Positions 1 to 27,910 are shown, counted from the stretch's first letter. The stretch is 64,000 bases of DNA from an uncultured delta proteobacterium (GCA_963843145.1 CAWJJC010000020.1:480001-544000); one strand, 5' to 3'. The notes: generated from the letters alone by a model not told the origin. Numbers and translations are program-made.

Positions 1-2910
1 ATCCTGTTCATGGTTGCCTACTATGCCGAATGGCGGGAAAAGAAGGGCCGGAGCATTGTCACCAACCCCTATGTCTACTCCCTTTCACTGGCCGTTTATT
101 GCACCTCCTGGACCTTTTACGGCAGCGTCGGAGAAGCGGCAACTTCGGGGTTGTCGTTTTTGCCCATCTATTTAGGCCCCACCCTGATGGCCGCTCTCTG
201 GGGGGTGCTGCTCTTGAAAATTATCGGGATCGCCCATAAAAATCGAATAACCACCATCTCCGATTTTTTAGGGTCCCGGTATGGAAACTCCCTTTTTCTC
301 TCCGGTCTGGTCACCGTGGTGACGCTGGTCGGGATCACCCCCTACCTGGGCCTGCAGATGAAGGCCATCATGAATACCTTTACGATTATGGCCGGTGAAC
401 CCCGGGGAAGCATGGCCGCCGGATGGGTGATCACCCTGATCCTGGGCAGCTTCGCCATTATCTTCGGCGCCCGCCGACTGGACTCCTCCGAACGTCACGG
501 CGGCCTGGTTTTTGCCATTGCCTTTGAATCGCTGGTCAAATTGATCGCCTTCCTCCTGGTGGGCCTCTTCGTCACCTTTGGTCTGTTCAACGGGTTCGGC
601 GACATCTTCAACCGGATTCAAAGCTCCAACTTCAGCTATCTGTTGATGATCGGCAGCGGCTCTTCGGTCAGCTTTCAGGAGTGGGCTACCCTGCTCTTTC
701 TTTCCATGATGGCCATCCTCTTTCTTCCGCGGCAATTTCACATCACCGTGGTGGAGAATTCGGACCCTTCCCATATTTCCAAAGCCACCTGGCTGTTCCC
801 CCTCTACCTCCTGCTGATCAACGTCTTCGTCATCCCCGTGGCCTTCGGCGGTCTCCTGCTGGGCGGCAACCAACTGGAGGCCGACAGCTTCGTCCTGACC
901 ATCCCCCTGCGCCAGGGAAGGTCCTACCTGGCCCTTCTGGCCTTTATCGGCGGTTTTTCCGCGGCCACCGGCATGATCATCGTGGAATCGCTGGCCCTGA
1001 GCACCATGGTCATGAACAGCCTGGTCATGCCGGCCATTTTTCGGTACAACCATGTCCGGGGCTTTCCCACCATTATCTTGAACATCAAACGGCTCATCAT
1101 CATCGGGTGTGTATTTTTAGGGTATTTTTTTGCCGTCTTTATTGGGCGCTTTTACACCCTGGTGGAGATCGGGCTGAAGTCGTTTGAAGCCGTGACCATT
1201 TTTGCCCCGCCCCTGATCCTGGGCCTCTACTGGAAGAAGGGCAACCGAAACGGGGCCATCGCCGGGATTGTCGCCGGTTTTGTGATCTGGTTTTATACCC
1301 TGCTCATGCCCGCCTTGATCAAGGCCGAAGTGTTCACCCCGGAAGGATTCCTGGCCGCCACCTTACGCCTGGATCTCCTCAACCCCCATGCCCTCTTCGG
1401 CTTGAAGGGGCTGGACAAGTGGAGCCAATCGCTCTTTTGGGGGCTGCTCTTCAACCTGTCCCTCTACTTGGGGTTTTCCATATTCACCAATCAGCGGGAG
1501 GGAGAAGATCGGCAGGCCCTGCTCTTTGTCGAATCCTATGACCCGGGCTTCGTTTCCCAAAAAAGCCGCTATACTATCCGGCAAATCGAGGAAATTCTAG
1601 GCCAGTATGTGGGCCGCATCGAGGCCCAGGAAATCATCGACCGTTTCATTCGGCAGCAGGGGATCAACCGCGAGGCGATCTCCTCGGAGGAAATCATTCA
1701 CTTGCGGAACGAGGCGGAGCGGGTCCTTTCCGGGGCACTGGGATCCTCCATCGCGACCATTATTTTTGAGGAAAAATCCGTCCTGACCGAAGAGGAACGG
1801 GGCGAGCTTTCCCATTCCATCAAGCAGATCACCGACACCCTGAGGCTTTCCCGCCATGAACTGGCCGAAGCCAACCGCAATCTGGCTTACCTGAAAGAAT
1901 TCAGTGAGAATATTATCGAAAGCGCCCCGGTGGGCATCATCACCGTGGACTCCCTCTCCCGGGTCAAGTACTGGAACCGGGAGATGGAAACCATCACCGG
2001 GATCAAAAAAAGCGTGGCCATCAACCGTTCCATTCAACCCCTGCTGCCCTGGGTCCATCGGGGGGCCTGGGGTCCCGGAAGTCCCCAGGAACTCATCGTC
2101 CAGACCCCGGCCAAGCAGACCATTAAAATCAACCTCAGCCCTTTTAAGGATCCGTCGGGCGGGCTGGTCGTCATGCTGGAGAACATTACCGAAAAAAAGA
2201 AAATGGAGGAGCAGCTCCTGCAGACCTCCAAATTGGCCAGTCTGGGACAGCTCACGGCCGGCATCTCCCATGAAATCGGGAACCCCCTGGCTTCCATCTC
2301 CTCCCTGGTCCAAGAACTGCAATCCATCGAACTGCTCGATCCGGAAGAAATCCTCTTTACCCGCGATTCCTTGAAAACCATCAACAGTCACCTGGAACGA
2401 ATCGCCAAGATCGTGCGCAGTCTGGGCGATTTTGCCCGCATCTCCTCCTCGGAGAAAAAACCGACCAATATTGTAGAAATCCTGGATCAGACCATCAGCC
2501 TGGTGAAATACGATAAACGCTCCCGGAAGGTGGACTTCACCTCCGACATCGACCCCATTCCCTTTCTGCGGGTCAACCCCGATCAGATTCAGCAGGTGTT
2601 TCTGAACATGGTACTCAATGCCATCGATGCCATGCCGGCGGGAGGCCGGTTCAATGTGTCCATCAAGCGGGCCGATCCTTGGGTGGAAATCCGCTTCACC
2701 GATACCGGCCAAGGGATCGAAGAGGCCGTGCTGGATCGAATATTCGACCCCTTCTTTACGACCAAGCCCCTGGGCAAAGGAACGGGATTGGGTTTAAGCA
2801 TCTGTTATGGTATCATCAGGGATCACGACGGGCAAATTTCGGTAAAAAGCAAAAAGGGAATCGGGACTACCTTTGAAATCCGACTCCCCCTGGAGGAATC
2901 CAATGGATGA
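1..2910 (+). CDS. Na+/solute symporter (SLC5)-STAC-PAS histidine kinase, CbrA/CrbS family, no receiver domain; probably 5'-truncated by the window edge
   Basis: N-terminal multi-TM region with YSLSLAVYCTSWTFYGSVG, STAC-like EAERVLSGALG, PAS, H-box SHEIGNPL, G-box GTGLGL. The frame is open from base 1. Confidence 0.9.
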   Translation: MLFMVAYYAEWREKKGRSIVTNPYVYSLSLAVYCTSWTFYGSVGEAATSGLSFLPIYLGPTLMAALWGVLLLKIIGIAHKNRITTISDFLGSRYGNSLFLSGLVTVVTLVGITPYLGLQMKAIMNTFTIMAGEPRGSMAAGWVITLILGSFAIIFGARRLDSSERHGGLVFAIAFESLVKLIAFLLVGLFVTFGLFNGFGDIFNRIQSSNFSYLLMIGSGSSVSFQEWATLLFLSMMAILFLPRQFHITVVENSDPSHISKATWLFPLYLLLINVFVIPVAFGGLLLGGNQLEADSFVLTIPLRQGRSYLALLAFIGGFSAATGMIIVESLALSTMVMNSLVMPAIFRYNHVRGFPTIILNIKRLIIIGCVFLGYFFAVFIGRFYTLVEIGLKSFEAVTIFAPPLILGLYWKKGNRNGAIAGIVAGFVIWFYTLLMPALIKAEVFTPEGFLAATLRLDLLNPHALFGLKGLDKWSQSLFWGLLFNLSLYLGFSIFTNQREGEDRQALLFVESYDPGFVSQKSRYTIRQIEEILGQYVGRIEAQEIIDRFIRQQGINREAISSEEIIHLRNEAERVLSGALGSSIATIIFEEKSVLTEEERGELSHSIKQITDTLRLSRHELAEANRNLAYLKEFSENIIESAPVGIITVDSLSRVKYWNREMETITGIKKSVAINRSIQPLLPWVHRGAWGPGSPQELIVQTPAKQTIKINLSPFKDPSGGLVVMLENITEKKKMEEQLLQTSKLASLGQLTAGISHEIGNPLASISSLVQELQSIELLDPEEILFTRDSLKTINSHLERIAKIVRSLGDFARISSSEKKPTNIVEILDQTISLVKYDKRSRKVDFTSDIDPIPFLRVNPDQIQQVFLNMVLNAIDAMPAGGRFNVSIKRADPWVEIRFTDTGQGIEEAVLDRIFDPFFTTKPLGKGTGLGLSICYGIIRDHDGQISVKSKKGIGTTFEIRLPLEESNG

Positions 2911-4072
2911 ACGACTGTTAATTGTGGAAGATGAAGATACCCTCAGGGAATCGCTCAGCCGGGTCTTTTCCCGGGAGGGGTATCAGGTGGTGGCGGTGAG
3001 CAGCGCCGAGCCGGCGCTGGAACTTTTCGAGGAAGGGTATTTTGACCTGATCATCACCGACATCATTCTGCCGGGAATCACCGGGATCGAACTGCTGAAA
3101 CGGGTCAAGGAGACGGCACCCGAACAGGTGGTCATCATCATGACCGCCTATGCCTCCCTGGAAACCGCCGTCGAAACCCTGCGCAACGGCGCCTACGACT
3201 ACATCGTCAAACCCATCATCCACGAAGAAATCAAGCAGATCGTCAAAAACGCGCTGAAGGTCCGGGCCTTGCAGAAGGAAAACGTCTTTCTCAAGAAGCA
3301 GATGGGCGGGTCCTATGACCTGAGCCGCATCATCGGGCAGCATCCCGAAATCCAGCAGATCGTCGGCCGGATCAAAAAGATCGTGGAGACCCGCAGCAAC
3401 GTCCTGTTCATCGGGGAAGTCGGGACCGGCAAGCGGCTTATCGCTCGGGCCATCCACTTCAACAGCCCCCGGGCCGACAAAACCTTCATGCCCGTCAACC
3501 TCCGGGCCATTCCTTCCCACCTGCTGGAGGAGGAGCTCTTCGGCCGGGTCAAGGACACCTTTCCCGGCTCCAGCCTGGTCATGGGAGGTTTTCTGGAAGA
3601 AGCCAACGGGGGAACGATCTATCTCAACGGCATTGAACTGTTGTCTCCCGACCTGCAGTTGAAACTCCTGAGGGTGTTGGAAGACCAGGAAGTCCGGCCG
3701 GTGGGCGGACCCCAGGGCATCAAGCTGGATCTACTGGTGATCTCCAGCTCTAACCTGGAACTGGAGGACCTGGTCCAGGCCGGGGAATTCCGGGAAGATC
3801 TCTACCAGCGCCTGAAGGTCGTGATCCTCAAAATCCCCCCTTTGCGGGAACGGGAAGAGGATTTGGACCTTCTGGCCCGGTTTTTCATCCAGCGCTATGC
3901 CAAAGAATTCGGCAAAACCGTCAAGGACCTCGCCCCGGAGGTCCTGACCCAATTCAAACGCTATGACTGGCCGGGCAACGTCCGTGAATTGCGTAGCCTT
4001 CTGGAAAGAGCCGTCCTGATCACCCGGGAAGAAGTTATCCGTCCCCATCATTTCTCGATCCCAGCGCCCTGA
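2903..4072 (+). CDS. Degenerate NtrC-family protein: receiver plus AAA+, lacking GAFTGA, Walker B acidic residues and HTH
   Basis: ATG 2903 after GGAGG, overlapping the kinase stop. REC (IVEDE...TDIILPG), Walker A GEVGTGK, DTFPGS in place of GAFTGA, YLNGI in place of FLDEI. The protein ends just after the AAA+ domain. Confidence 0.85.
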   Translation: MDERLLIVEDEDTLRESLSRVFSREGYQVVAVSSAEPALELFEEGYFDLIITDIILPGITGIELLKRVKETAPEQVVIIMTAYASLETAVETLRNGAYDYIVKPIIHEEIKQIVKNALKVRALQKENVFLKKQMGGSYDLSRIIGQHPEIQQIVGRIKKIVETRSNVLFIGEVGTGKRLIARAIHFNSPRADKTFMPVNLRAIPSHLLEEELFGRVKDTFPGSSLVMGGFLEEANGGTIYLNGIELLSPDLQLKLLRVLEDQEVRPVGGPQGIKLDLLVISSSNLELEDLVQAGEFREDLYQRLKVVILKIPPLREREEDLDLLARFFIQRYAKEFGKTVKDLAPEVLTQFKRYDWPGNVRELRSLLERAVLITREEVIRPHHFSIPAP

Positions 4073-4084
4073 ACCCGACGGATT

Positions 4085-5983
4085 ATGATCATTGAAGACG
4101 TCCTCAGTTTTTTAAAAGGGATCCCCCCGTTTCAATTCCTGGAAGAACCCCTCTTAAAAAAAGCGGCCGGGAGCCTGTCCCTGGAATTCTATCCCAAGGA
4201 TACCGTCATCTTGAAACAAAACGGCCCTCCCAGCGATTCTTTGCGGGTAATCAAAAAAGGGGCGGTCAAGGTCCTGATGGGGGACGAGACGGGGGAAGAA
4301 ATCGTCCTGGAATACAAAGGGGAGGGAGATAACTTCGGGTTCCTTTCCCTGATCGGAAAGGATCGCCAGCGGACCACCGTCAAGGCGGTCGAGGACACCC
4401 TCTGCTACATAATGGATGAACAGCGGGTGCGCAAGCTGATAGAAACCAGCCCGCCCTTCAACGAATATTTCATGGCCTACCTCTCCCGGTATGTGGATCG
4501 GACCTATCAGGAGATGCATCAACGGAACGCACTAAACAACGAAAGCGACCGCCTCCTGTTCACCACCTCGTTGGGGAGCATCGCCATTCCGCTGGTCACA
4601 GTATCCGAAAAGACCTCCATTCAGGAGGCGGCGCAGGTGATGGCCCAACACAAAATCAGCTCCCTGATCATCTGCAATAAAAACAACTTGCCCAGCGGGA
4701 TCGTCACCGATCGCGACTTGCGGGAAAAAGTGGTCGCCAAGGGTCGAAACATCGCCGAACCGGTCAAAAACATCGGAAATCTTTCCTTGATCCGGGCGGA
4801 CGGGAGAGATTCCTGCTTCGAGGCCCTGTTGAAAATGATCCAGTATGGCATCCACCATCTGCTGGTGGTGGAGGAGGGCGCCCTGAAGGGCATTGTTACC
4901 AACCATGACCTGATGCTGCTCCAGGGAACGTCTCCGGTTTCCTTTGCCAATGATATTTTGAATCAAGAAACCGTCGAAGGCCTGGTCCCCTTAACACAAA
5001 AAATTTTTAATATCATCCACCTGCTGTTAAAGGAAGACACCCAGGTAGCCCACCTGTCCAATATTATTACCGAGATTTATGACCGCCTTTTCCGCAAGGT
5101 CATGGAGATCGGAGAAAAAAAATTCGGCCCGCCGCCCCTGCCCTATTGTTTTGTGGTCCTGGGCAGTGAAGGCCGCAGGGAACAGATCTTTAAAACCCGG
5201 CAGGACCATTGCCTGATCTATTCTGACCCGGGGACCCCGGGCGCCGAGATCGAGGCCGCCGGATACTTTGCGGATCTCAGCGCTTGGATCCGGGACAGCC
5301 TGACGACTCTGGAAATACCTCCGGGGCCGGGCGGCTATCTGGCCTCCAACCCCAACTGGCGGCAACCGTTTCAAGTCTGGCAAAAAATTTTCCGGGAGTG
5401 GATCGAGGAGGCTTCCCCGGAAAAACTAAGGGAGGCCCTGCCCTTTTTTGACTCCCGCCCCTTGTATGGAAAATTCAGCCTTTTTCTGACCACCCGGGAC
5501 CATATCGTCGCCCTCATCGGCGAGGAAGGGCAGGGTTTTTTGAAAGCTGTTACCGAATTAATCGTTAAAACCCCGCCGCCGGTAGGGTTCATCAAAAACC
5601 GGGTGGTGGAACAGGATGGAACCCAGCAGGAACGGCTCGACTTGCACGAAAAAGGCCTGCGGCCCTTGATCGATCTGGTCAGGCTCTTTGCCCTTTCCAG
5701 GGGCATTCGGGAAACCTCCACGCTGGCCCGGATCCAGGCCCTGAAAGACCGCGAACCGGCCTTCCAAAAACTCAGCGGGGAGCTGGCCCATGCTTTCGAG
5801 TTCATGATGCTGTTTACTATTCATCATCAGTTTCAGCAGATTAAGAAAGGCCAGCGGCCGGACTCCCTGTTAGAACCGACGCATCTGAACAGCCTGGAGA
5901 AAAAGACTCTTCGGGAAGCCTTCCGCTTGATCGGTCGGCTGCAGGCCCTGGCTCAGGCGGCCTTTGGGGTGGAAACCCCCTGA
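4085..5983 (+). CDS. cNMP-binding + CBS pair + DUF294 nucleotidyltransferase-like protein (copy 1)
   Basis: IPPF/cNMP N-terminus, CBS motif GIVTDRDLR, LGSEGRREQ, ASNPNWRQP, FFDSRPLYG. Confidence 0.9.
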   Translation: MIIEDVLSFLKGIPPFQFLEEPLLKKAAGSLSLEFYPKDTVILKQNGPPSDSLRVIKKGAVKVLMGDETGEEIVLEYKGEGDNFGFLSLIGKDRQRTTVKAVEDTLCYIMDEQRVRKLIETSPPFNEYFMAYLSRYVDRTYQEMHQRNALNNESDRLLFTTSLGSIAIPLVTVSEKTSIQEAAQVMAQHKISSLIICNKNNLPSGIVTDRDLREKVVAKGRNIAEPVKNIGNLSLIRADGRDSCFEALLKMIQYGIHHLLVVEEGALKGIVTNHDLMLLQGTSPVSFANDILNQETVEGLVPLTQKIFNIIHLLLKEDTQVAHLSNIITEIYDRLFRKVMEIGEKKFGPPPLPYCFVVLGSEGRREQIFKTRQDHCLIYSDPGTPGAEIEAAGYFADLSAWIRDSLTTLEIPPGPGGYLASNPNWRQPFQVWQKIFREWIEEASPEKLREALPFFDSRPLYGKFSLFLTTRDHIVALIGEEGQGFLKAVTELIVKTPPPVGFIKNRVVEQDGTQQERLDLHEKGLRPLIDLVRLFALSRGIRETSTLARIQALKDREPAFQKLSGELAHAFEFMMLFTIHHQFQQIKKGQRPDSLLEPTHLNSLEKKTLREAFRLIGRLQALAQAAFGVETP

Positions 5984-7329
5984 TGGCCGAGCGAATCCTC
6001 ATTGTTGACGATGAAGCCACCCTGTGCGCGTCCCTGCAGCGGGTTTTCGTCAGGGAAGGGTATGAGGTGGTAACGGCCCACGACGCCGAGGCGGCCCTGG
6101 CCCAATTCGAGGAAGGCGCCTACGACCTGATCATTTCCGATATCCTCCTTCCCGGCATGAACGGCATCGAGTTTCTGCAGGCCGTCAAAAAACGGGCGCC
6201 CGACCTGATCGTCATCGTCATGACCGCCTATGCTTCCATCGAAACTGCCGTCAGCGCCCTGCGCTCCGGGGCCCACGATTATATTCTTAAGCCGGTCATC
6301 CATGACGAAATCAAACGCCTGGTTCGGCTGGCCCTGCACGAAAGGGCCCTTCGGACCGAAAACATCCTGTTAAAAAAACAGATCGAAGACCGCTATGACT
6401 TTGAAAACATCCTAGGCAAAAGTCAGTCTATTCAAGATCTGATCGAACAGGTGAAAAAAATATCGGATTCCCGCAGCAACGTCCTGGTCCTGGGGGAAAC
6501 CGGCACCGGGAAAGAACTGTTTACCCGGGCTATCCATTTCAACAGTTCTCGCAGGAACAAGCCCTTCGTACCCATCAATTGCAGCGCCATTCCCGATAAC
6601 CTCCTGGAATCCGAATTGTTCGGCTACGTCAAAGGCGCCTTTACCGGAGCCACCCAGACCAAGAGAGGCCTGCTGGAAGAAGCGGATGGGGGCACTGTTT
6701 TCCTGGACGAAATCGCCGATCTGGGTTTCTCCCTTCAGGCCAAATTGCTCCGGGTGATCGACGATCACGAAATTCGTCCCCTGGGCAGCACTCAGAGCCG
6801 AAAGGTGGACCTGCGCTTTGTCTCCGCCACCAATAAAGATGTCCGGACAGCCGTGAAGGAAGGGTCTCTGCGGGAGGACCTTTATTACCGCCTGAGCGTG
6901 GTCACCTTTCACTTGCCCCCTCTTCGAGACCGGAAAGAGGATATTCCTATTTTGGCCCGTCGGTTCGTCAAAAAGTATGTCCAGGAACTGGGGAAGCCGG
7001 TCCAGGAAATCGATCCGGTCGCCATTAAAATCTTTAGCGAATACGATTGGCCAGGGAATGTCAGGGAGCTTCAGAATGTCATTGAGCGGGCCGTACTGAT
7101 TTCCGAAGGGAAGAGCATCCTTCCCGAACATCTTCCAGAGGGAATCAGGAAGACCGATTCTTTTATGTTGAAGGCCCTGGATGATTCATTATCTATAGAA
7201 AACTATACCAAAGAATTCATCAAACGACACGAAACCTCCATGAACGAACAAAGACTTGCGGATATGCTGGGGATTACCAGAAAGGCCCTTTGGGAAAAGA
7301 GAAAAAGGTGGGGTCTGGTAAAAAAATAA
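5983..7329 (+). CDS. Sigma-54-dependent response regulator (REC-AAA+-HTH), CbrB-like C-terminus
   Basis: GETGTGKE, ESELFGYVKGAFTGA, FLDEI, WPGNVREL, HTH LADMLGITRKALWEKRKRWG. Confidence 0.93.
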   Translation: MAERILIVDDEATLCASLQRVFVREGYEVVTAHDAEAALAQFEEGAYDLIISDILLPGMNGIEFLQAVKKRAPDLIVIVMTAYASIETAVSALRSGAHDYILKPVIHDEIKRLVRLALHERALRTENILLKKQIEDRYDFENILGKSQSIQDLIEQVKKISDSRSNVLVLGETGTGKELFTRAIHFNSSRRNKPFVPINCSAIPDNLLESELFGYVKGAFTGATQTKRGLLEEADGGTVFLDEIADLGFSLQAKLLRVIDDHEIRPLGSTQSRKVDLRFVSATNKDVRTAVKEGSLREDLYYRLSVVTFHLPPLRDRKEDIPILARRFVKKYVQELGKPVQEIDPVAIKIFSEYDWPGNVRELQNVIERAVLISEGKSILPEHLPEGIRKTDSFMLKALDDSLSIENYTKEFIKRHETSMNEQRLADMLGITRKALWEKRKRWGLVKK

Positions 7330-7330
7330 A

Positions 7331-7444
7331 TGTTACTTTTTTTCCTGAAAAGCTCGGCATTTATTACTTTTGGTAACATAATATAACTTATTATATTTAT
7401 TATGTAATTATTATATGCAATAATTTTCGTAACCATTTGTAACG
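7331..7444. promoter_or_regulatory. Candidate enhancer (UAS) half-sites TGTTAC/GTAAC
   Basis: TGTTAC 7331-7336, GTAACA 7373-7378, GTAACC 7429-7434 and GTAACG 7439-7444, in an AT-rich tract upstream of a sigma-54 promoter. Confidence 0.55.
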
Positions 7445-7565
7445 TTTTTTTTAACAAAATCATGAAAACTATTTCACCAATAGAAGAACCTGCTCAAACC
7501 AATTGAATAGAATATAATAATTAATTCAGTAGGTTATTATATTCAGGGCGCTCTCTTTCCTTCCC

Positions 7566-7581
7566 TGGCATACCTATTGCT
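7566..7581 (+). promoter_or_regulatory. Sigma-54 -24/-12 promoter
   Basis: TGGCATACCTATTGCT fits TGGCA-N6-TTGCW with exact GG-N10-GC spacing. Confidence 0.85.
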
Positions 7582-7591
7582 TCGTTAATAA

Positions 7592-7714
7592 TGAAAAAAT
7601 TAAATTACGTAATCGGGTTTAAAGAGGATCGCACTCTTTAAAGGTTAAATATTTTAACACCGATGGTCGGGCCGCCATCTCCGTCATATTTTATGACGGG
7701 TTGGCGGTTTTTTT
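7592..7714 (+). ncRNA. Putative sigma-54-dependent small RNA or attenuated leader (~120 nt)
   Basis: Bounded by the sigma-54 promoter and an intrinsic terminator. Internal hairpins TTTAAAGAG/CTCTTTAAA (7618-7642), GTTAAA/TTTAAC and CCGA/TCGG. Confidence 0.5.
7671..7714 (+). terminator. Intrinsic terminator
   Basis: GCCGCCA-tct-CCGTCATA-ttt-TATGACGG-gt-TGGCGGT followed by a T-run. Confidence 0.8.
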
Positions 7715-7795
7715 CTTTCCTGAATAAACAACAATAAAAATTTGAATAGATCGATCCCCTGATCTCAGGTGAATATTCCTCCGGGGAAACAGGTC

Positions 7796-9700
7796 ATGGC
7801 AATCGAAGAGGCCCTACAATTCCTCCGGGAAACCCCCCCGTTTCATAATCTGGACGGCGTGGTCCTGCAGGATATCCGGGCCCAAATTACCACGGAAACC
7901 TATCCCCAGGGTACCCCTATAGTTCTCCCGGACAGGCCGGGGGGGGACCATCTTCGAATAATCAAGAAGGGAGCGGTTAAGGTTATCGCCTACTTTGGCT
8001 CAGCGAGCGACGTGGTGACGGACTACCGAGGAGCAGGGGAAATCTTCGGATTTTTGTCCCTGCTGACCGGAGACGAGCTGAAGGCCCAGGTGGTCGCCCT
8101 GGAGGAAACCACATGCTACCTCATCGACCGGAAGATGTTTTTTCAGCTTATTCAGACCCAGCCGGCCTTCGCCGAACAAATGTTCGCCGCCGTTCTGAAA
8201 AAATATGTGGATAAGCCCAACCGGGAAAGGGGAAAGAAGAAACTGCTCTATGGGGGGGCCGACCGCCTTTTTTTTACAACTCCCGTCGGTGAACTGGTTA
8301 CCAGGGACCTGGTTACGGCCTCCGAAGAAATTTCCATCCGGGAGGCCACGGAGATCATGTCCAAGGAGCAGATAAGCTCCTTGGTCCTATTGAATCCCCT
8401 GGGACTGCCATCGGGGATTATAACCATCAAGGACCTGCGGGATAAAGTGGTTTCCAGAGGGCGGGACCTCAATCTGCCGGTCAAAAGGGTCCAGAGCGTT
8501 TCACTGGTCCGGGCCGAAGCCGGCGAGCACTGCATCGAAGCCCTATTTAAGATGATTCATTATAACATCCATCATCTGCTGGTGGTGGACCAGGGTCGTC
8601 TGAAGGGGGTCGTGACCACCCACGATCTGATGAAACTGCAGGGCGCTTCGCCGATTTCTCTGGTCCGAGAGATTGAGGGCCGGCATTCCTTGGAGGACCT
8701 GGCCCCGCTTGGCGGGAAAGTCCGGGACCTGGTGGGGATTTTTTTGAATGACGGCGTCAATCCGGCCCAGATCCTGCGGATTACCACCGAGGTCTATGAC
8801 CGCCTACTCCGGAAGATACTCGAAATAGTCGAAAGGAAACTGGGGACCCCGCCGAGATCTTATTGCTATGGTTCCCTCGACCGGGCCGGCCGTAAGGAGC
8901 AGGGTTTGGAGAACGTTCAACCCTTCGCCCTGATATATTCCGATCCCGCCCCTTCGGAGCCGGAAAAAGAAGCCCGGGAATATTTTGACCGTTTCTTTTA
9001 CCTGACCTCCGAAGCCCTGGGTCGTCTCGGCTTTCAGGTCTCGACACTTGAGGACCCTGAATCCGGAAATCTCGACCGCTGCCGAACGCTAGGATCTTGG
9101 AAGACCGTATTTACCGATTGGATCCATCAGGCAGATGCCCGGTCCGCTGCGGCTGCTCTGCCCTATTTGGATTTCCGGCCCCTGCACGGCGATCTGCGCC
9201 TGGCCGACGATTTACGGCGCTCGATTACCTCCGATTTGTCCCGAAAACGGGAATTCCTGGAGGCCCTGGCCCTGTTCATTCTTAAAAACTCTCCCCCGAT
9301 CAGCGTTTTCCGGAACTTCATTTTGAAAAAAAGCGGAGAGTTCAAAGGATGCTTCGACCTGGAGGAAAAAGGGTTGAGGCCTCTGGTGGACCTGATTCGG
9401 TTTTTCGCTCTGGAAGCCGGGATACCTGAAACCTCCACCCTGGATCGACTTCAAGCCCTGAAGGCGATTTCTCCCTTGGTCAGGGAAAACGGGCAGGAGC
9501 TGGAATACGGCTTTGAATTCCTGACCGGGCTCTGGCTGAAGATTCGGCAGGAACAGATCACCCGGGGACTCCCGCCGCATCCCTACCTGGACCCTAACAA
9601 CCTAAACAGCCTGGAAAAAAAAACGCTGAAAGAAGTGTTCGCCCTGGTCGCCCGACTGCAGGGTCTGCTGCTGGAGAAGGTTCAACCAATTAAATTCTGA
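7796..9700 (+). CDS. cNMP-binding + CBS pair + DUF294-like protein (copy 2, more degenerate)
   Basis: Paralog of 4085-5983 (DRLFFTTP, KDLRDKVV, LNSLEKKTLKE). ATG at 7796; alternative GTG at 7769. Confidence 0.88.
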   Translation: MAIEEALQFLRETPPFHNLDGVVLQDIRAQITTETYPQGTPIVLPDRPGGDHLRIIKKGAVKVIAYFGSASDVVTDYRGAGEIFGFLSLLTGDELKAQVVALEETTCYLIDRKMFFQLIQTQPAFAEQMFAAVLKKYVDKPNRERGKKKLLYGGADRLFFTTPVGELVTRDLVTASEEISIREATEIMSKEQISSLVLLNPLGLPSGIITIKDLRDKVVSRGRDLNLPVKRVQSVSLVRAEAGEHCIEALFKMIHYNIHHLLVVDQGRLKGVVTTHDLMKLQGASPISLVREIEGRHSLEDLAPLGGKVRDLVGIFLNDGVNPAQILRITTEVYDRLLRKILEIVERKLGTPPRSYCYGSLDRAGRKEQGLENVQPFALIYSDPAPSEPEKEAREYFDRFFYLTSEALGRLGFQVSTLEDPESGNLDRCRTLGSWKTVFTDWIHQADARSAAAALPYLDFRPLHGDLRLADDLRRSITSDLSRKREFLEALALFILKNSPPISVFRNFILKKSGEFKGCFDLEEKGLRPLVDLIRFFALEAGIPETSTLDRLQALKAISPLVRENGQELEYGFEFLTGLWLKIRQEQITRGLPPHPYLDPNNLNSLEKKTLKEVFALVARLQGLLLEKVQPIKF

Positions 9701-9752: not shown

Positions 9753-10463
9753 ATGCTCGATTTTTTTAGAAGCAAAAAAACAAAATTTAACGCCGGAGCC
9801 CCTCCGGGGGCCGTGGTTGAAGCCGGACTCCCGATCAATGAAATCCGCGCCGTGGTCCTGGACACCGAACTGACCGGTCTGGACCGAAAACGGGACGCTA
9901 TCGTTTCCATCGGGGCGGTCAAAATGGTCGGGGGCCGGATCGAAATGGGCCACACCTTTTACCAGTTGGTGAACCCCAACAAGGTGATGAAGCCGGAGAG
10001 TGTGGTCGTCCATGAGATCACCCCCTCCGAGGTCGTTGAAAAGCCAGATATCGGCCCGGTCCTGGCAGAATTCCTGACCTTCTGCAACGGAGACATCCTG
10101 ATCGGTCATTATATCAACATGGACCTGGCCTTCATCAACCGGGAGTTAAAGAAGACCTTGGGCCGAACCCTGAAGAATCCGGCCCTGGACACCATGGCCC
10201 TGATGCACTGGTGGCGTTCCAACACCCCCCAGCATGGCCCGAGCTCCTTTACGGCCCAAAATTTTGAGTTGGTGGCCATCGCCAAGGAATTGGCCATACC
10301 GGTCCAGGGGGCGCACAACGCCCTCATGGACGCCTTTATGACCGCGCAGGTTTTTCAACGGTTGCTCCCGAGGCTGGAGCAATCAGGCCTGCGGACCCTG
10401 GGGGAGCTGCTGCGGGCGGGAGATCCGGCCCGCAAGCTGCGGCAGGCCGGGGCGATGATTTGA
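9753..10463 (+). CDS. DEDDh 3'-5' exonuclease (DNA polymerase III epsilon-like)
   Basis: VLDTELTG, GHYINMD, HNALMDA. This is the usual partner of DUF294 proteins. Confidence 0.9.
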   Translation: MLDFFRSKKTKFNAGAPPGAVVEAGLPINEIRAVVLDTELTGLDRKRDAIVSIGAVKMVGGRIEMGHTFYQLVNPNKVMKPESVVVHEITPSEVVEKPDIGPVLAEFLTFCNGDILIGHYINMDLAFINRELKKTLGRTLKNPALDTMALMHWWRSNTPQHGPSSFTAQNFELVAIAKELAIPVQGAHNALMDAFMTAQVFQRLLPRLEQSGLRTLGELLRAGDPARKLRQAGAMI

Positions 10464-10647: not shown

Positions 10648-10905
10648 ATGGCTACAAGAGATTTAAAGGCCTACTGGAAGGAGAATCTTACCTACGTGTT
10701 CATTCTCCTGGCTATCTGGTTTGCTGTGTCCTACCTCTTCGGCATCATCCTGGTCAACCAACTGGGTAGCGTCTACCTGGGCGGTTTCCCGCTGGGGTTC
10801 TGGTTCGCCAACCAGGGATCGGAGGTCATCTTTGTCCTCCTGATCCTGGTTTACGTAAAACTGATGAATGCCCTGGATCGAAAATACGACGTCCATGAAA
10901 AGTAG
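10648..10905 (+). CDS. DUF4212 small membrane protein (symporter-associated)
   Basis: AYWKEN...GGFPLGFWFANQGS. AAGGAGG RBS; directly precedes the symporter. Confidence 0.9.
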   Translation: MATRDLKAYWKENLTYVFILLAIWFAVSYLFGIILVNQLGSVYLGGFPLGFWFANQGSEVIFVLLILVYVKLMNALDRKYDVHEK

Positions 10906-10938: not shown

Positions 10939-12723
10939 ATGGGTATATTAGCTTGGACTTGGGTGATTGTCGGCCTGTCATTCGCCCTGTATATATCGAT
11001 CGCCTGGTACGCCAAGGCCAAAACCACCGGCGACTTCTACGTGGCCGAACGGCAGATCCATCCGGTCTTGAACGGGATGGCCACCGGGGCGGACTGGATG
11101 TCCGCGGCCTCCTTCATCTCCATGGCCGGTCTGATTTCCTTCCTCGGCCGGGACGGTTCCATGTACCTCATGGGCTGGACCGGCGGCTATGTCCTCCTGG
11201 CCATGCTTCTGGCCCCTTATCTGCGCAAGTACGGGAAGTTCACCGTACCCATGTTCGTCAAGGAGCGCTATTACTCCGATGCGGCCCGGGTCGTGGCCGT
11301 CTTCTGCGCCATCTTCGTGTCTTTTACTTACGTGGCCGGCCAGATGCGCGGCGTGGGCATTGTCTTCTCCCGCTTTTTGGAAGTGCCGATCAACACGGGC
11401 GTGCTGATCGGCATGGCCATCGTCTTTTTCTACGCCGTCACCGGCGGCATGAAAGGCATCACCTACACCCAGGTGGCCCAGTACTGCGTCTTGATCGTGG
11501 CCTACATGATCCCGGCCATCTTCATCTCCATCATGCTCACCGGTTGGCCCATCCCCCAGATCGGTTACGGCAGCAGCTTAAGCCAGGGCGGGCAGGCGCT
11601 TTTAGGTACCTCGCCGGGATACCTGCTGGATAAGCTGGACGGACTGCAGATAGAACTGGGCTTTAAGGCCTACACCGGCCAGGGGGCCAAGAGTCTGCTC
11701 GACGTCTTCATGATCACCTTCGCCCTGATGGTCGGAACGGCCGGGCTGCCCCACATCATCATCCGCTTTTTCACCACCCCGACGATCAAGGGCGCCCGGG
11801 CCTCGGCCGGCTGGGCCCTCTTCTTCATCGCCCTGCTCTACACCACCGCCCCGGCCGTGGCCGCCTTCGCCCGGACCAACCTGATCCTGACCTTAAACAA
11901 CAAAAACTACGCTGACGCGCCTTCCTGGTTCAAGAACTGGGAGATGACCGGTCTCGTCGCCTGGAAAGACAAGAACGGGGACGGCAAAATCCAGTTCGCC
12001 CCGGGAAACGCCTTTAAGGGCAAAGTGGCTTTTTCCAAGGAAAAAGGCCAATACGGAGAACGGGTAGTTACCACGCCTTTCGATGACAAGAGTAAAAACG
12101 AACTGTACATCGACAACGACATCGTCGTGCTGGCCAACCCGGAAATCGCCAAACTACCAAACTGGGTAGTGGCCCTGGTGGCCGCCGGCGGGCTGGCCGC
12201 GGCCCTGTCCACCGCGGCCGGTTTGCTCCTGGTCATTGCCTCGGCCATCTCCCACGACCTGATCAAGGGCATTATTCGCAAGGACATTTCCGAGAAGGGA
12301 GAACTGACCTGGGCCCGGAGCGCCGCCGGCGCGGCGGTCATCGTTGCCGGCTACTTCGGCATCAACCCCCCCGGCTTCGTGGCTCAGGTGGTGGCCTTTG
12401 CCTTCGGTCTGGCCGCCTCCTCCTTCTTCCCCCTGATCATCATGGGGATCTTCTGGAAGCGGGCCACCAAGGCCGGGGCCATCCTGGGCATGGCCAGCGG
12501 CATCGTCTTTACCGCCATCTACATCATCTACTTCAAGTTCGTCAACCCGGGGGTCAACAATGCCGCTCATTGGTTATGGGGCATCTCTCCGGAAGGCATC
12601 GGCACCATCGGGATGGCCCTTAACTTCATCGTGATGTATGTGGTTTCCCTGATCACCCCCCCGCCTCCGCAGGAGGTCCAGGACATGGTCGAGCGGATCC
12701 GTTATCCGAGGGAGCTGGCCTAA
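10939..12723 (+). CDS. actP: Cation/acetate symporter, ActP-like sodium:solute symporter
   Basis: NGMATGADWMSAASFIS, GTAGLPHIIIRFFT, AALSTAAGLL; located next to acs. Confidence 0.85.
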   Translation: MGILAWTWVIVGLSFALYISIAWYAKAKTTGDFYVAERQIHPVLNGMATGADWMSAASFISMAGLISFLGRDGSMYLMGWTGGYVLLAMLLAPYLRKYGKFTVPMFVKERYYSDAARVVAVFCAIFVSFTYVAGQMRGVGIVFSRFLEVPINTGVLIGMAIVFFYAVTGGMKGITYTQVAQYCVLIVAYMIPAIFISIMLTGWPIPQIGYGSSLSQGGQALLGTSPGYLLDKLDGLQIELGFKAYTGQGAKSLLDVFMITFALMVGTAGLPHIIIRFFTTPTIKGARASAGWALFFIALLYTTAPAVAAFARTNLILTLNNKNYADAPSWFKNWEMTGLVAWKDKNGDGKIQFAPGNAFKGKVAFSKEKGQYGERVVTTPFDDKSKNELYIDNDIVVLANPEIAKLPNWVVALVAAGGLAAALSTAAGLLLVIASAISHDLIKGIIRKDISEKGELTWARSAAGAAVIVAGYFGINPPGFVAQVVAFAFGLAASSFFPLIIMGIFWKRATKAGAILGMASGIVFTAIYIIYFKFVNPGVNNAAHWLWGISPEGIGTIGMALNFIVMYVVSLITPPPPQEVQDMVERIRYPRELA

Positions 12724-13150: not shown

Positions 13151-13218
13151 CAAGCGAGAAAATTGGCAAGGCTGTAATTGTTAGCCTGAAAAAAATATAA
13201 AAAGGAGTGAAAAAAACT

Positions 13219-15267
13219 ATGGCTGAAAAAGAAGAAAAAGGCGTTGAAGCGTCCGAAGCTGAAATAGCGGTGCATTGGCAGGAAGAAGGGTTGGTTTATC
13301 CTTCGGTGAAGTTCATTGCCCAGGCCAACATGACCGATGAATCGATCTATGATCGTTTTTCATTGGAAAATTTTCCCAACTGTTTCAAAGAATATGCCGA
13401 TATGCTGACCTGGTACAAGTACTGGGACGAAATCCTCGATACCAGTGATGCCCCCTGTTACAAATGGTTTAAGGGCGGCTTGATCAATGCCAGCTACAAC
13501 TGTATTGACCGGCATCTGGCCCAGTATAAGAACAAAACCGCGATCCACTTCGTCCCGGAGCTGGAGAATGAGAAGACCGAGCATGTCACCTACCAGGAGT
13601 TGTATGTCCGGGTGAATGAGTTTGCCGCCATCCTGCAGAATGAATGCGGACTGAAGGCCGGGGACCGGGTCACCCTGCATTTGCCCATGGTGGCCGAACT
13701 ACCCATCACGATGCTGGCCTGCGCCAGACTGGGCGTTATTCATTCTCAGGTCTTCGGCGGGTTCAGCGCCAGGGCCTGCGCCGACCGGATCGTGGACTCG
13801 GGAAGTGAATACCTGATCACGATGGACGCCTATTATCGATCCGGCCAGCTTCAAGAACATAAAGAAAAGGCGGATATTGCCCTGGCCGAGGCGGCCAAAG
13901 ACGGACAGCAGGTCAAAAAGGTCCTGGTCTGGCAGCGCTATCCCGGCAAGTATTCTTCGAAGATCCCGATGGTGGAAGGGCGCGACTTTTTTGTCAATGA
14001 CCTGCTGAAAAAGTATTACGGCGCCCGGATTGAGCCGGTCAAGATGCCCGCGGAAGCGCCGCTGTTTCTCATGTATACCAGCGGCACCACCGGAAAGCCC
14101 AAAGGCGCCCAGCACAGTACCGGGGGTTATCTGGCGTATGTCACCGGCACCTCGAAATACGTTCAGGATATTCATCCGGAAGACGTTTACTGGTGTATGG
14201 CGGACATCGGCTGGATTACGGGCCATTCCTACATTGTTTATGGTCCGCTGGCCTTAGCGGCCTCCACGGTTATTTATGAAGGCGTCCCTACCTATCCGGA
14301 TGCCGGCCGATCCTGGAGGATTGCTCAGGACCTCGACGTGAATATATTCCACACCGCACCGACGGCCATCCGGGCACTAAGAAAGGTCGGTCCTGACGAG
14401 CCGAAGAAATACAATTATCACTTCAAGCATATGACCACCGTGGGTGAGCCGATTGAGCCTGAAGTCTGGAGATGGTATTATAAGGAGGTCGGCAAAGGCG
14501 AGGCGATCATTGTGGATACCTGGTGGCAGACCGAAAACGGCGGTTTCCTGTGCAGCACCCTCCCGGCCATTAAGCCCATGAAGCCCGGCAGTGCCGGCCC
14601 GGGTATGCCCGGTATCCATCCGATCGTTTATGACAATGACGGCAACGTCGTTCCAGCAGGATCAGGCAAGGCCGGCAACATCTGCATCCAAAACCCGTGG
14701 CCCGGCATGTTCCAGACCATCTGGGGAGACCGCGACCGTTTTGTCAAGACTTATTTTGAAAGATACTGCAAAGACCCAAAGAGCAAGCGGTGGCAGGATT
14801 GGCCATATCTGACCGGTGATGCCGCGGTGGTGGCTGAGGACGGTTATGTCCGCATCCTCGGTAGAATTGACGATGTGATCAATGTTTCCGGTCACCGACT
14901 GGGGACCAAGGAGATTGAGTCCGCGGCTTTGACCCACCCGGATGTGGCCGAGGCGGCCGTTGTTCCGGTGAAGCATGAGGTCAAAGGCAAGGAACCGGAT
15001 CTGTATATCGCCTTGAAACCCGGCAGAACAGCCTCTGATGAACTGGCCAAAGCCATATCCCAGTGTATCGTCAAGGAAATCGGTGCCATCGCCAGGCCGA
15101 GAAAGGTATGGATTGTCGCTGACATGCCCAAGACCCGGTCGGGAAAGATCATGCGTCGTGTACTGGGCGCTATTTCCAACCACACGGATGTCGGCGATGT
15201 GATGACCCTGGCCAATCCTGAAATCGTCGAGGCCATTCTGAAGATGAATAAGGAATCCGGAGTGTAA
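13219..15267 (+). CDS. acs: Acetyl-CoA synthetase (AMP-forming)
   Basis: YTSGTTGKPKG, ADIGWITGHSY, DTWWQTE, GRIDDV, PKTRSGKIMRR. Confidence 0.95.
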   Translation: MAEKEEKGVEASEAEIAVHWQEEGLVYPSVKFIAQANMTDESIYDRFSLENFPNCFKEYADMLTWYKYWDEILDTSDAPCYKWFKGGLINASYNCIDRHLAQYKNKTAIHFVPELENEKTEHVTYQELYVRVNEFAAILQNECGLKAGDRVTLHLPMVAELPITMLACARLGVIHSQVFGGFSARACADRIVDSGSEYLITMDAYYRSGQLQEHKEKADIALAEAAKDGQQVKKVLVWQRYPGKYSSKIPMVEGRDFFVNDLLKKYYGARIEPVKMPAEAPLFLMYTSGTTGKPKGAQHSTGGYLAYVTGTSKYVQDIHPEDVYWCMADIGWITGHSYIVYGPLALAASTVIYEGVPTYPDAGRSWRIAQDLDVNIFHTAPTAIRALRKVGPDEPKKYNYHFKHMTTVGEPIEPEVWRWYYKEVGKGEAIIVDTWWQTENGGFLCSTLPAIKPMKPGSAGPGMPGIHPIVYDNDGNVVPAGSGKAGNICIQNPWPGMFQTIWGDRDRFVKTYFERYCKDPKSKRWQDWPYLTGDAAVVAEDGYVRILGRIDDVINVSGHRLGTKEIESAALTHPDVAEAAVVPVKHEVKGKEPDLYIALKPGRTASDELAKAISQCIVKEIGAIARPRKVWIVADMPKTRSGKIMRRVLGAISNHTDVGDVMTLANPEIVEAILKMNKESGV

Positions 15268-15351
15268 GCCGCCGTTCGAAGGGTAACTATTTCTCCGCAG
15301 GGTATAAAGAGTGAAAACATCATTTGTCTTTTGACCCATTTCAGGTTTTTT

Positions 15352-25759: not shown

Positions 25760-25780
25760 AACCTTGAAGCTCCCCGGGTT

Positions 25781-25917: not shown

Positions 25918-25927
25918 TATAGAATTC

Positions 25928-27877: not shown

Positions 27878-27910
27878 GGTCTTGGGCTCCTTTATTCATT
27901 GGCTGGTATT

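Follow-up and report, generated by a model that had tools for sequence, protein, structure and literature searches.

The window, a 64-kb stretch of DNA from an uncultured deltaproteobacterium, begins with genes for a sensor kinase and two sigma-54-type response regulators (RR1 and RR2). These are followed by a control region, a short leader and genes for carboxylate uptake and activation (Table 1).

Table 1. Features of the locus, in window coordinates
Feature	Position	Strand	Basis
SLC5-STAC-PAS-HisKA-HATPase sensor kinase, no receiver, CbrA-like architecture	10..2910	+	Pfam, PDB 10ED alignment
RR1: receiver and degenerate sigma-54 AAA+ domain, no HTH (pseudo-activator)	2903..4072	+	Pfam
cNMP-binding/CBS/DUF294 nucleotidyltransferase, paralogue a	4085..5983	+	Pfam
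RR2: intact NtrC-type sigma-54 activator, REC-AAA+-HTH	5983..7329	+	Pfam, NCBIfam, PDB
Box A: TGTTAC + T7 + CC, degenerate third site	7331..7345	+	Alignment
PAL1: TATTAC-N5-GTAACA	7362..7378	+	1 mismatch to TGTTAC-N5-GTAACA
PAL2: CGTAAC-N5-GTAACG	7428..7444	+	66 bp after PAL1
Sigma-54 promoter (-24 GG / -12 GC), TGGCATACCTATTGCT	7566..7581	+	TGGCAY-N5-TTGCW match
nhaA-I-class (Li+-I / Na+-II type) riboswitch aptamer	7615..7680	+	Rfam RF03057
Intrinsic terminator (expression platform) over P2 loop and 3' arm, then T7	7670..7714	+	Folding
cNMP-binding/CBS/DUF294 nucleotidyltransferase, paralogue b, first gene past the riboswitch	7796..9700	+	Pfam
DEDD (RNase T / DnaQ-like) 3'-5' exonuclease	9753..10463	+	Pfam, NCBIfam
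DUF4212, small subunit of Na+/solute symporter	10648..10905	+	PF13937; TIGR03647 above cut-off
VC_2705-family sodium/solute symporter, large subunit	10939..12723	+	TIGR03648
Acetyl-CoA synthetase (acs)	13207..15267	+	TIGR02188, NF001208 above cut-offs

The kinase is composed of SSF, PAS, HisKA and HATPase_c domains, with no receiver detected by Pfam. Its residues 5-585 align with PDB entry 10ED (SLC5-STAC) through the STAC region (E 2.2e-74), an entry that the accessible part of its depositors' preprint describes as the SLC5-STAC structure of Pseudomonas CbrXA. The reading frame continues without a stop codon past the window edge, as far as 48 nt upstream. Full-length orthologues with 74-83% identity are encoded in seven related genomes, and one more, split, in G019. 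The kinase presumably responds to a carboxylate-related signal.

RR1 and DUF294 paralogue a, which both lie between the kinase and RR2, had been overlooked in an earlier, sequence-only reading of this DNA. RR1 contains REC, Sigma54_activat and lid domains, and the DNA-binding domain is absent. All 7/7 orthologues retain Walker A and the Asp of the receiver but have lost the GAFTGA motif and the Walker B Glu, and the HTH is absent from them. RR1 is the nearest paralogue of RR2 in the genome (53% identity), and DUF294 paralogue a keeps the same position in G002, G003, G008, G012 and L053.

RR2 is a protein of 448 aa, in which Pfam detects REC, the sigma-54 AAA+ domain and the lid. The GAFTGA and Walker A/B motifs, as well as the C-terminal motif LGITRK(A/S)LW(E/Q)KRK(R/K)W, are nearly unchanged across nine orthologue rows (eight distinct); the HTH is nearly invariant, whereas the remaining protein diverges to 70% identity. 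RR2 is single-copy in a genome with at least 41 activator paralogues. Its top curated models fall short of their cut-offs: AtoC reaches 460 of 714 bits, and NtrC 399 of 558.6 bits. A search that requires shared exact 5-residue words recovered 95 proteins having the C-terminal 64 residues of RR2 in common, of which none bears the CbrB name or originates from Pseudomonas. The Pfam domains and the 10ED alignment agree with the sequence-only reading, which had described an SLC5-STAC-PAS kinase without a receiver and a sigma-54 activator at 5983-7329, and the C-terminal sequence that it quoted is present.

The TGTTAC/GTAAC half-sites that the same reading placed right after the activator gene were recovered, with one TGTTAC (7331) and three copies of GTAAC(A) (7373, 7429 and 7439), and the conservation check that it proposed showed sites and promoter kept in 11 loci. 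The conserved footprint of these loci consists of three TGTWAC-N5-GTAACA-type sites followed by a sigma-54 promoter. An equivalent of PAL1 is present in 11/11 loci, and the PAL1-PAL2 spacing is 64-67 bp in all of them. PAL2 has three mismatches to a perfect palindrome; in L053 to L056, its left half commonly reads TGTAAC. Box A was seen in 4/11 loci by regular expression and in 9/11 by alignment; a full palindrome takes its place in L053 and L054. In nine of the 11 loci, the sites begin at most ~300 bp past the RR2 stop codon, mostly tens of bp. The palindrome is not enriched genome-wide (three sites at no more than one mismatch, versus five for a reversed control).

The promoter, described earlier as well formed and borne out at 7566-7581, is the one place in the 64 kb where TGGCAY-N5-TTGCW is matched; 0.09 matches are expected from shuffled sequence, and 9/100 shuffles contained at least one. 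Its GGCA and TTGC elements are invariant in the 11 aligned loci, and it lies 121-138 bp downstream of PAL2 in every one. The intervening DNA is not conserved. The genome encodes rpoN. Transcription is predicted to start at ~7592; in G002 and G003, the promoter is ~14 nt ahead of the start codon.

For the transcript, a match to an established riboswitch family had been overlooked before. With 44.7 bits, the hit to RF03057 clears the gathering score of 37 (E 1.3e-5 for the window, 2.6e-7 for the genome). No second Rfam family exceeds its cut-off in the 64 kb, and the 5.3-Mb genome has no further nhaA-I copy. In the model alignment, both stems (P1, 7619-7626/7634-7641; P2, 7661-7667/7674-7680) and all conserved nucleotides are intact, including GGGU, AGGU and GGUCGGGCCGCC. 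The departures from the model are a non-standard outermost P2 pair and a 10-nt insertion in the P1-P2 linker.

The aptamer is joined to a terminator hairpin (7670-7709; -25.3 kcal/mol alone) with a run of seven Ts at 7708-7714. A simple terminator scanner made no call at 7200-7900; its rule permits no bulges, and the stem has two. The fold predicted for the leader 7592-7712 has an energy of -41.6 kcal/mol (z -5.6); 0/200 shuffles were as stable. The 5' arm of the terminator spans the loop and 3' arm of P2, and the two folds are mutually exclusive: the nascent RNA to 7684 folds P1 and P2, whereas in the full leader the terminator is favored by ~10 kcal/mol (-41.9 versus -32.1 kcal/mol with the aptamer enforced). 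Of the short terminated transcript proposed earlier, the terminator with its hairpin and T7 therefore stands, but the stand-alone small RNA gives way to a riboswitch leader.

The ten related or paralogous loci with conserved sites and promoter all lack the riboswitch, and 7564-7691 is not spanned by any contig from other samples. Since the riboswitch is confined to one genome, covariation and conservation provide no evidence in its present context. A sample of 27 nhaA-I copies from the phylum includes 20 with a T-run behind the aptamer, and none of the 26 besides that of the window has a sigma-54 promoter or these downstream genes. Nucleotide 7667 is U, giving a U-G closing pair in GGUCGGGCC. 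By manual assignment from the supplement, it corresponds to position 54 of the Desulfobulbus propionicus construct; the base at this position is U in 23/27 copies and C in 4/27. In the accessible part of White et al. 2022 (PMC9646797), a C-to-U mutant of the Na+-specific variant responded to Li+, Na+ and NH4+. Given U instead of the C of that tested variant, the ligand could be Li+, Na+ or both. We infer that the riboswitch is functional and senses a cation of this kind.

The first gene past the leader, DUF294 paralogue b, has an ORF opening with GTG at 7769; homologues align from ATG 7796, with tblastn alignments beginning at residues 8-10. The large symporter subunit scored 845.6 bits against the TIGR03648 cut-off of 320.75, and its substrate is presumably a small monocarboxylate, be it acetate or, for instance, lactate or propionate. 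The acs gene, set off from the symporter by a 483-bp gap, may belong to the riboswitch-gated transcript. A second copy of the segment 13148-15296, with 99.3% DNA identity, lies on contig C28, where the same sites and a sigma-54 promoter precede exo-DUF485-ActP-acs with no activator gene adjoining. The acetate setting proposed earlier was supported, in that the module adjoins carboxylate uptake and activation genes. However, acetate-related genes continue upstream of the window, and the module therefore does not stand at the head of an acetate/propionate locus, as had been claimed.

Taken together, these features suggest that the riboswitch probably gates a sodium-coupled organic-acid uptake operon switched on by a Cbr-like kinase and activator. 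The CbrA-like kinase and RR2 would start transcription at the sigma-54 promoter, with RR2 binding the three upstream sites, and the first ~120 nt of the RNA would form the nhaA-I-class riboswitch joined to the terminator. When the cation is absent, the terminator would form and release an RNA of ~120 nt; when it is bound, P2 would be held closed, the terminator blocked, and the polymerase would read on into DUF294, the exonuclease, DUF4212, the VC_2705-type Na+/solute symporter and perhaps acs. The presence of a VC_2705-family symporter downstream may favor the link to sodium. We thus consider it likely that the Na+/solute symporter operon is under a two-input gate, with a carbon signal arriving via the activator and a cation signal via the riboswitch.

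Several other explanations were weighed. The riboswitch-terminator might be a recent, non-functional or leaky passenger, with the operon under the activator and sigma-54 alone, as its presence in a single genome, the 10-nt linker insertion relative to the model and the close relatives of the cassette that work without it (L052, L055) would suggest. We regard this as unlikely, since the conserved aptamer nucleotides and both stems are all intact, the terminator overlaps P2 exactly like that of a functional example in the accessible part of PMC9646797, and a constitutive leader terminator of -25 kcal/mol would silence the operon unless relieved. It seems improbable, to a still greater degree, that not RR2 but a different regulator binds the palindromes, either another of the at least 41 activators or RR1 with a partner: the sites lie close behind the RR2 stop codon in nine of 11 loci, the RR2 HTH is near-invariant despite 70% identity in the rest of the protein, and RR1 has no DNA-binding domain. 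The C28 operon, with the same sites and no adjoining activator gene, and the lack of palindrome enrichment in the genome speak for such a regulator. RR2 is thus the presumed binding protein.

The sequence-only reading had assigned a CrcZ-like small RNA to the module. In a true CbrA/CbrB/CrcZ circuit, the ~120-nt RNA would sequester a Crc/Hfq-type repressor, and the architecture of the kinase and activator, the sigma-54 promoter directly behind the activator gene and the occurrence of TGTTAC and GTAACA, the hexamers published for CbrB (PMC6296734), would fit it. Yet the RNA exceeds the curated cut-off of a cis-regulatory riboswitch family, none of the remaining Rfam families, those of sRNAs among them, reaches its own, a gene in the same direction lies downstream, and the RNA is missing from the ten related loci that retain the promoter. 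The repeated A-rich AANAANAA motif that defines CrcZ occurs 0 times in 7592-7712. We consequently rejected a CrcZ-like trans-acting sRNA, which appears very improbable, in favor of a cis-acting nhaA-I-class leader. Some terminated riboswitch RNAs are reported to act in trans too, and a discrete terminated product is predicted here when the activator is on and the cation low. Nevertheless, such a dual use of the ~120-nt product is the hardest of all to credit, as the RNA is not conserved in relatives and there is no evidence for any target.

In agreement with the Cbr-type circuit proposed earlier, a kinase and regulator with the CbrA/CbrB domain architecture are present, the receiver-less SLC5-STAC-PAS kinase being followed by an NtrC-type activator with intact GAFTGA and HTH, whereas the CrcZ-like part of that proposal falls away. 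The control region has a sigma-54 promoter right behind the activator gene, with conserved sites built from TGTTAC and GTAACA. The CbrB subsites F1, R1 and R2 are 20-25 bp apart in the accessible part of PMC6296734, while the hexamers of the window form 17-bp palindromes repeated at ~31 and 64-67 bp. CbrAB is described in the accessible part of PMC8871633 as exclusive to Pseudomonadaceae; the lineage of the window, Thermodesulfobacteriota, supports the earlier claim of a Cbr-like module outside Gammaproteobacteria. Unlike the Cbr system, the window has a degenerate activator and a DUF294 gene between kinase and activator, and its presumed targets are carboxylate uptake genes, with no CrcZ-like RNA.

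The regulators also set the window apart from CrbS/CrbR, as CrbR is of the LuxR type and acts at sigma-70 promoters, whereas those of the window are sigma-54 AAA+ proteins. In the accessible parts of the cited literature, CrbS is described as a receiver-bearing hybrid kinase, unlike the kinase here, which has no Response_reg domain. In Vibrio and Pseudomonas, the SLC5/STAC kinase of CrbS/CrbR (MxtR/ErdR) acts over acs, an acetate symporter and a cNMP-CBS-nucleotidyltransferase gene (PMC5715377, accessible part); likewise, acs, symporter and cNMP-CBS-nucleotidyltransferase genes are among those downstream of the two site-bearing promoters, presumably under their control. RpuS/RpuR of Sinorhizobium fredii, in which an SLC5/STAC kinase controls the pyruvate symporter MctP, offers another parallel, as the kinase of the window would also regulate an SSS-family monocarboxylate symporter. 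However, it belongs to a different lineage, and the accessible part of PMC9100948 describes no sigma-54 regulator or riboswitch for it.

Among nhaA-I riboswitches, the window stands out by its promoter, as the only one of 27 sampled copies driven by sigma-54; a known Li+/Na+ riboswitch class thus sits, unusually, behind such a promoter. Na+/solute symporter operons are not named in Supplementary Table I of PMC9646797, where the rows 'Hypothetical' (171) and 'Other' (52) are not broken down, and the first downstream gene of the window would have been listed as hypothetical. According to the accessible part of that study, terminator-type variants occur only in Deltaproteobacteria, before genes of unknown function, and one of them turns transcription on with Na+. 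The D. propionicus Na+-II variant differs in having C at position 54, giving a C-G pair that closes the P2 loop, in place of the U of the window. It shares with the window a deltaproteobacterial-type lineage and an intrinsic terminator overlapping P2, an overlap that implies ON-with-ligand logic, and the window riboswitch is predicted, from its sequence, to respond to Na+, Li+ or both and to act by ligand-dependent antitermination.

The kinase gene is followed by more than a single gene, namely by RR1 (a degenerate activator-like gene), DUF294a, RR2 (the intact NtrC-type activator) and a gene run that opens with a second DUF294 gene. The kinase frame is open for 48 nt past the window edge, and the homologue alignments begin at the ATG at position 10. 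The alignment with PDB entry 10ED, described in the depositors' preprint as the SLC5-STAC structure of Pseudomonas CbrXA, covers kinase residues 5-585 (E 2.2e-74) and extends past the last membrane helix. With this coverage, the SLC5-STAC-PAS-kinase reading is confirmed against CbrA itself, and the domain matches and the alignment both agree with the sequence-only reading of the protein as an SLC5-STAC-PAS kinase lacking a receiver.

Features of the signalling module and its downstream operon (window positions)
Feature	Position	Strand	Description
Sensor kinase	10-2910	+	966 aa; domain matches to SSF, PAS, HisKA and HATPase_c, no receiver
RR1	2903-4072	+	receiver, sigma-54 AAA+ and lid, without DNA-binding domain
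DUF294a	4085-5983	+	cNMP-binding/CBS/DUF294 nucleotidyltransferase
RR2	5983-7329	+	activator described in the sequence-only reading
Box A	7331-7345		third element of the window
PAL1	7362-7378		palindrome, 1 mismatch
PAL2	7428-7444		palindrome, 3 mismatches
Sigma-54 promoter	7566-7581		TGGCATACCTATTGCT
nhaA-I (RF03057)	7615-7680	+	44.7 bits, cut-off 37
Terminator	7670-7714		hairpin 7670-7709, seven T 7708-7714
Second DUF294 gene, DEDD exonuclease, DUF4212, symporter		+	3' of RR2, past a 439-bp spacer
Acetyl-CoA synthetase, isochorismatase-family gene, second acyl-CoA synthetase			3' of the symporter

The symporter belongs to the VC_2705 family of Na+/solute symporters (TIGR03648, 845.6 bits against a cut-off of 320.75), and the second acyl-CoA synthetase is closest to PrpE, with a score under the PrpE cut-off. 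The module had been placed at the head of an acetate/propionate locus. However, directly 5' of the kinase, in the stretch 4-0.3 kb before the window start (L002:3890-7747), lie another cNMP-CBS-DUF294 gene and a fusion of acetyl-CoA hydrolase/transferase with a GNAT acetyltransferase. With these carboxylate-related genes on its 5' side, the module therefore lies inside a carboxylate locus. The genome contains at least four DUF294 paralogues. Alpha-glucan (GlgE-type) genes begin on the opposite strand at 18.5 kb; this minus-strand cluster (18484-34720) encodes a GlgE-like maltosyltransferase, a trehalose synthase/maltokinase-like fusion, a branching enzyme and a GH57/DUF3536 protein, and a plus-strand GT4 glycosyltransferase lies within the same interval.

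The acetyl-CoA synthetase (acs) stretch at 13148-15296 has a second copy on C28, a contig of the same genome that holds a paralogous locus (L061:5580-7730, minus strand). The two copies share 99.3% DNA identity over 2151 bp, as against 65-78% for the genes flanking them, which suggests recent duplication or gene conversion. The bin measures 5.3 Mb and is 97.9% complete with 6.9% contamination, and a binning effect could also produce such a pair. Same-genus genomes carry DUF485 (YjcH-like) and ActP (L047 10834-12700 in G003) in place of the window's DUF4212 and VC_2705-type symporter. In G003, the ActP gene is broken across two frames, reflecting a frameshift or an assembly error. G019 (C31 134168-137022, L051) has an interrupted kinase orthologue, with two overlapping matches and one TGA, and acs lies directly 3' of RR1 there, without DUF294a or RR2.

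We compared the spacer 3' of RR2 and its equivalents in eleven loci, namely the window, the same-genus genomes G002 and G003, the sister-genus genomes G008 and G012, the public contigs L052-L054, two distinct metagenome contigs, L055 and L056 (over this spacer L057 does not differ from L056), and the C28 locus. All eleven contain two 17-bp palindromes, TGTWAC-N5-GTAACA, which lie 64-67 bp apart with 0-3 mismatches to TGTTAC-N5-GTAACA, and a sigma-54 promoter 121-138 bp past the second palindrome, in which GGCA and TTGC are invariant. The DNA in between shows no conservation. A third element, ~30 bp 5' of the first palindrome, reads TGTTAC-T7-CC in most loci, and L053 and L054 have a complete palindrome there. 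The TGTTAC/GTAAC half-sites noticed earlier are thus real and now better defined, and the conservation of enhancer and promoter, proposed as a check at that time, holds in 11/11 loci. Between PAL2 and the promoter, an IHF site (WATCAR-N4-TTR) occurs in 1/11 loci, that on C28, and is absent from the window, so that IHF involvement is not claimed. Genome-wide, the palindrome is not enriched, with three sites (up to one mismatch) as compared to five for the reversed control. One of the three marks the C28 operon (exo-DUF485-ActP-acs-acs2-DUF294), which carries a sigma-54 promoter of its own and adjoins no activator gene.

RR2 probably binds Box A, PAL1 and PAL2, because in most loci the sites start directly after its stop codon, its C-terminal motif stays nearly unchanged while the overall identity drops to 70%, it occurs once among the 41 or more activator paralogues and RR1 lacks a DNA-binding domain. 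The paralogue count refers to sigma-54 activator AAA+ matches in the genome (E up to 1e-60), in which rpoN is single-copy. The motif, LGITRK(A/S)LW(E/Q)KRK(R/K)W, is near-constant in nine rows of RR2 orthologues (eight distinct), and the RR2 C-terminus is the sequence quoted in the sequence-only reading. Proteins sharing this C-terminus also occur in Smithellaceae, Thermodesulfovibrionales/Nitrospirota, Dissulfurispiraceae and a Chloroflexota MAG; none of 95 is named CbrB, a count from a word-limited method that bears neither way. The near-identical proteins P0004-P0007 share 94-98% identity with RR2 across its last 64 residues.

The receiver aspartate and Walker A are retained in all seven orthologues of RR1, and all seven have lost GAFTGA, the HTH and the Walker B glutamate (in place of DE they have NG, DK/DR or SG). 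GAFTGA, the Walker B glutamate and the HTH are all kept in the RR2 orthologues (9/9 rows). RR1 is the closest paralogue of RR2, with 53% identity as compared to 45% or less for the others. Since RR1 is conserved yet devoid of the features for sigma-54 contact, ATP hydrolysis and DNA binding, we infer that it would most simply act as a modulator. Its two candidate roles are to serve the kinase as a phosphate sink or to poison RR2 rings as a subunit. A receiver-AAA+ protein of this type, without contact loop, catalytic glutamate and DNA-binding domain, represents a candidate modulator.

The promoter, which had been recognized from the sequence alone, carries both invariant elements and is the sole sigma-54 consensus match in 64 kb; in shuffled sequences, 0.09 matches are expected, and at least one match occurred in 9/100 shuffles. 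The leader behind it contains nhaA-I, a Li+/Na+ riboswitch class and the sole Rfam family above cut-off in the window (E 1.2e-7 when a 600-bp region was searched). In the alignment, P1 has 8 bp and P2 has 7 bp with a non-standard outermost pair; the conserved nucleotides GGGU, AGGU and GGUCGGGCCGCC are present, and the linker has a 10-nt insertion. Judged by sequence, the RNA is a member of the nhaA-I class, with Na+ and/or Li+ as candidate cations. The P2 loop and the entire P2 3' arm make up the 5' arm of the terminator hairpin. In folding calculations, RNA extending to 7684 forms P1 and P2 (-20.0 kcal/mol), and the full leader forms the terminator (-41.9 kcal/mol, as compared to -32.1 kcal/mol with the aptamer pairs enforced). 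A simple terminator scanner made no call for this bulged stem. Among contigs from four DNA runs, X1 covers 7413-7563 and X3 covers 7692-7865, and none reaches into 7564-7691, the stretch that includes the aptamer.

The sequence-only reading had taken this RNA for the CrcZ-like small RNA of a Cbr circuit. Its short terminated transcript stands insofar as the terminator is present. However, the AANAANAA motif, a hallmark of CrcZ, does not occur in 7592-7712, the RNA matches RF03057, and a gene in the same direction starts 81 nt past the T-run. For these reasons the CrcZ-like reading is rejected in favor of a riboswitch leader, and the idea of a Cbr circuit with its own small RNA falls with it. 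The earlier observation is confirmed, and its interpretation is partly supported; an attractive but mistaken Cbr-Crc-type reading is hereby corrected.

The window's copy is the only nhaA-I RNA in its genome, whose closest named contigs carry Thermodesulfobacteriota or Desulfobulbaceae MAG labels. The class, order and family of this genome coincide in the genome set used (21 species genomes), and wider nhaA-I searches at these three ranks covered the same 21 genomes each time, with no gain over a search of 61 genomes. The riboswitch is present in 12/61 genomes and in 14/151 of a phylum sample, two overlapping sets. In the 90 nt 5' of the aptamer, none of the 26 other copies has a sigma-54 motif; a TTGAC -35-like box precedes most of them, and none of the nine window proteins was found at these 26 loci (tblastn E up to 1e-5). 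A T-run follows the aptamer in 20/27 copies, the window included, and C occupies the specificity position in 4/27. Pfam matches for 14 downstream ORFs, a list that is indicative only since the automatic choice of the first ORF is crude, comprise NhaB, a P-type cation ATPase, a Na/Ca exchanger, CitMHS, periplasmic binding proteins, a glycosyltransferase, DUF502, an FGE-sulfatase-type protein and a pentapeptide-repeat protein, with 4/14 lacking a match. Tandem riboswitches ~135-155 nt apart, with one terminator each, occur at L004/L014 (G021 C51 29495-29689) and L069/L072 (G141 C68 40110-40325). Sister-genus copies (L005, L006, L008, L009, L011, L013 and L016; family f1) have a conserved TTGACTTAT...TAATAT promoter upstream and a short hydrophobic ORF downstream, starting MNG/MNE-I-(S/W)RRI; farther 3' lie a P-type cation ATPase in L016 and a Na/Ca exchanger in L006.

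The ten other loci with which the window was compared gave no Rfam match (L047-L050 and L052-L054 at the gathering score; L052-L057 and L061 at E up to 0.01). Counted by hand, the promoter and the start codon are 214 nt apart in the window, as compared to ~115 in L055, ~95 in L052 and ~14 in G002 and G003, and the extra length fits a 98-nt aptamer plus terminator. In G003 (L047 ~8136-8167) and G002 (L048 ~8199-8233), the -12 element precedes the start codon of DUF294 by ~14 nt, implying that the sigma-54 transcript would be nearly leaderless. Global MAFFT alignment of the leader with its closest relatives was uninformative on the insertion point, and, for the leader past the terminator, local scores against L055 and L052 stayed within 1.4 sd of those of shuffles. 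Because the leaders are too diverged to map junctions, we claim no exact riboswitch boundaries. The riboswitch is a singular addition, seen in one genome so far, and represents a known class whose regulatory and genetic context is new.

In the mechanism that we propose, the kinase would pass carbon or carboxylate status, a signal suggested by its family, to RR2; even for CbrA the signal is described as unresolved (PMC8871633). RR2 on its three sites would activate sigma-54 polymerase at the promoter. With Na+ and/or Li+ bound, P2 would hold and allow read-through into the DUF294-exo-DUF4212-symporter genes; without cation, transcription would stop at ~7712. The same type of enhancer would drive the ActP operon on C28, and since that operon shares the enhancer and lacks the riboswitch, the latter would limit the Na+-coupled transporter to Na+-containing conditions. 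The neighbouring acs suggests acetate as the substrate of the symporter. However, a fitness study of DUF4212/symporter pairs in Shewanella and Pseudomonas stutzeri indicates lactate and D-alanine instead, and its authors speculate that a nearby cofit gene, cited there as a COG2905 member and described as encoding an RNase T-domain protein, is needed for symporter expression (bioRxiv 10.1101/072470).

Taken together, we tentatively suggest, with a little less than even confidence, that one activator serves two paralogous carboxylate-uptake operons through identical enhancer sites, a newly captured cation riboswitch residing only on the VC_2705/DUF4212 operon. The Na+-dependent transporter would then need a carbon signal for sigma-54 initiation as well as cytoplasmic Na+ for antitermination, with the ActP operon as the fallback, and RR1 would tune RR2 in either of its two candidate roles. 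If true, the two inputs would amount to a natural AND gate of sigma-54 and riboswitch, and the regulon of the Li+/Na+ class would widen from ion export to ion-coupled carbon import. Given a paralogous operon with the same enhancer sites and promoter and no riboswitch, the two-input idea is directly testable in one genome.

A member of this recently defined class is here newly placed between a sigma-54 promoter and a sodium-coupled solute symporter operon. The titles and passages covered on sigma-54/riboswitch pairing, the Desulfovibrio sigma-54 regulome, a 2025 sigma-54 regulon survey and the Na+-II riboswitch contain no description of this arrangement. nhaA-I RNAs have been validated as Li+ riboswitches (White et al. 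2022, PMC9646797), and their rare terminator-type variants were reported in Deltaproteobacteria only, before genes of unknown function; the present setting offers a plausible physiological reason for one such link. In the Desulfobulbus propionicus variant, named Na+-II, Na+ switches transcription on, and C replaces the U of most nhaA-I RNAs; its C-to-U mutant responds to Li+, Na+ and NH4+ (PMC9646797). The window RNA shares the terminator platform of Na+-II but has U (7667) in place of this C.

Among the signalling systems, CrbS/R, CbrA/B and RpuS/R are the only SLC5/STAC members described as characterised in the abstracts covered. The present module is an uncharacterised member of this family, CbrA/CbrB-like by architecture, short of a demonstrated CbrAB orthologue. 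Its branch is found in Thermodesulfobacteriota and, by protein matches, also in Nitrospirota, and the 11-locus comparison defines its enhancer architecture. The sites described for CbrB consist of the same hexamers as F1/R1/R2 subsites 20-25 bp apart (PMC6296734), whereas here the hexamers are arranged as N5 palindromes. The regulon, in turn, resembles that of CrbS/R.
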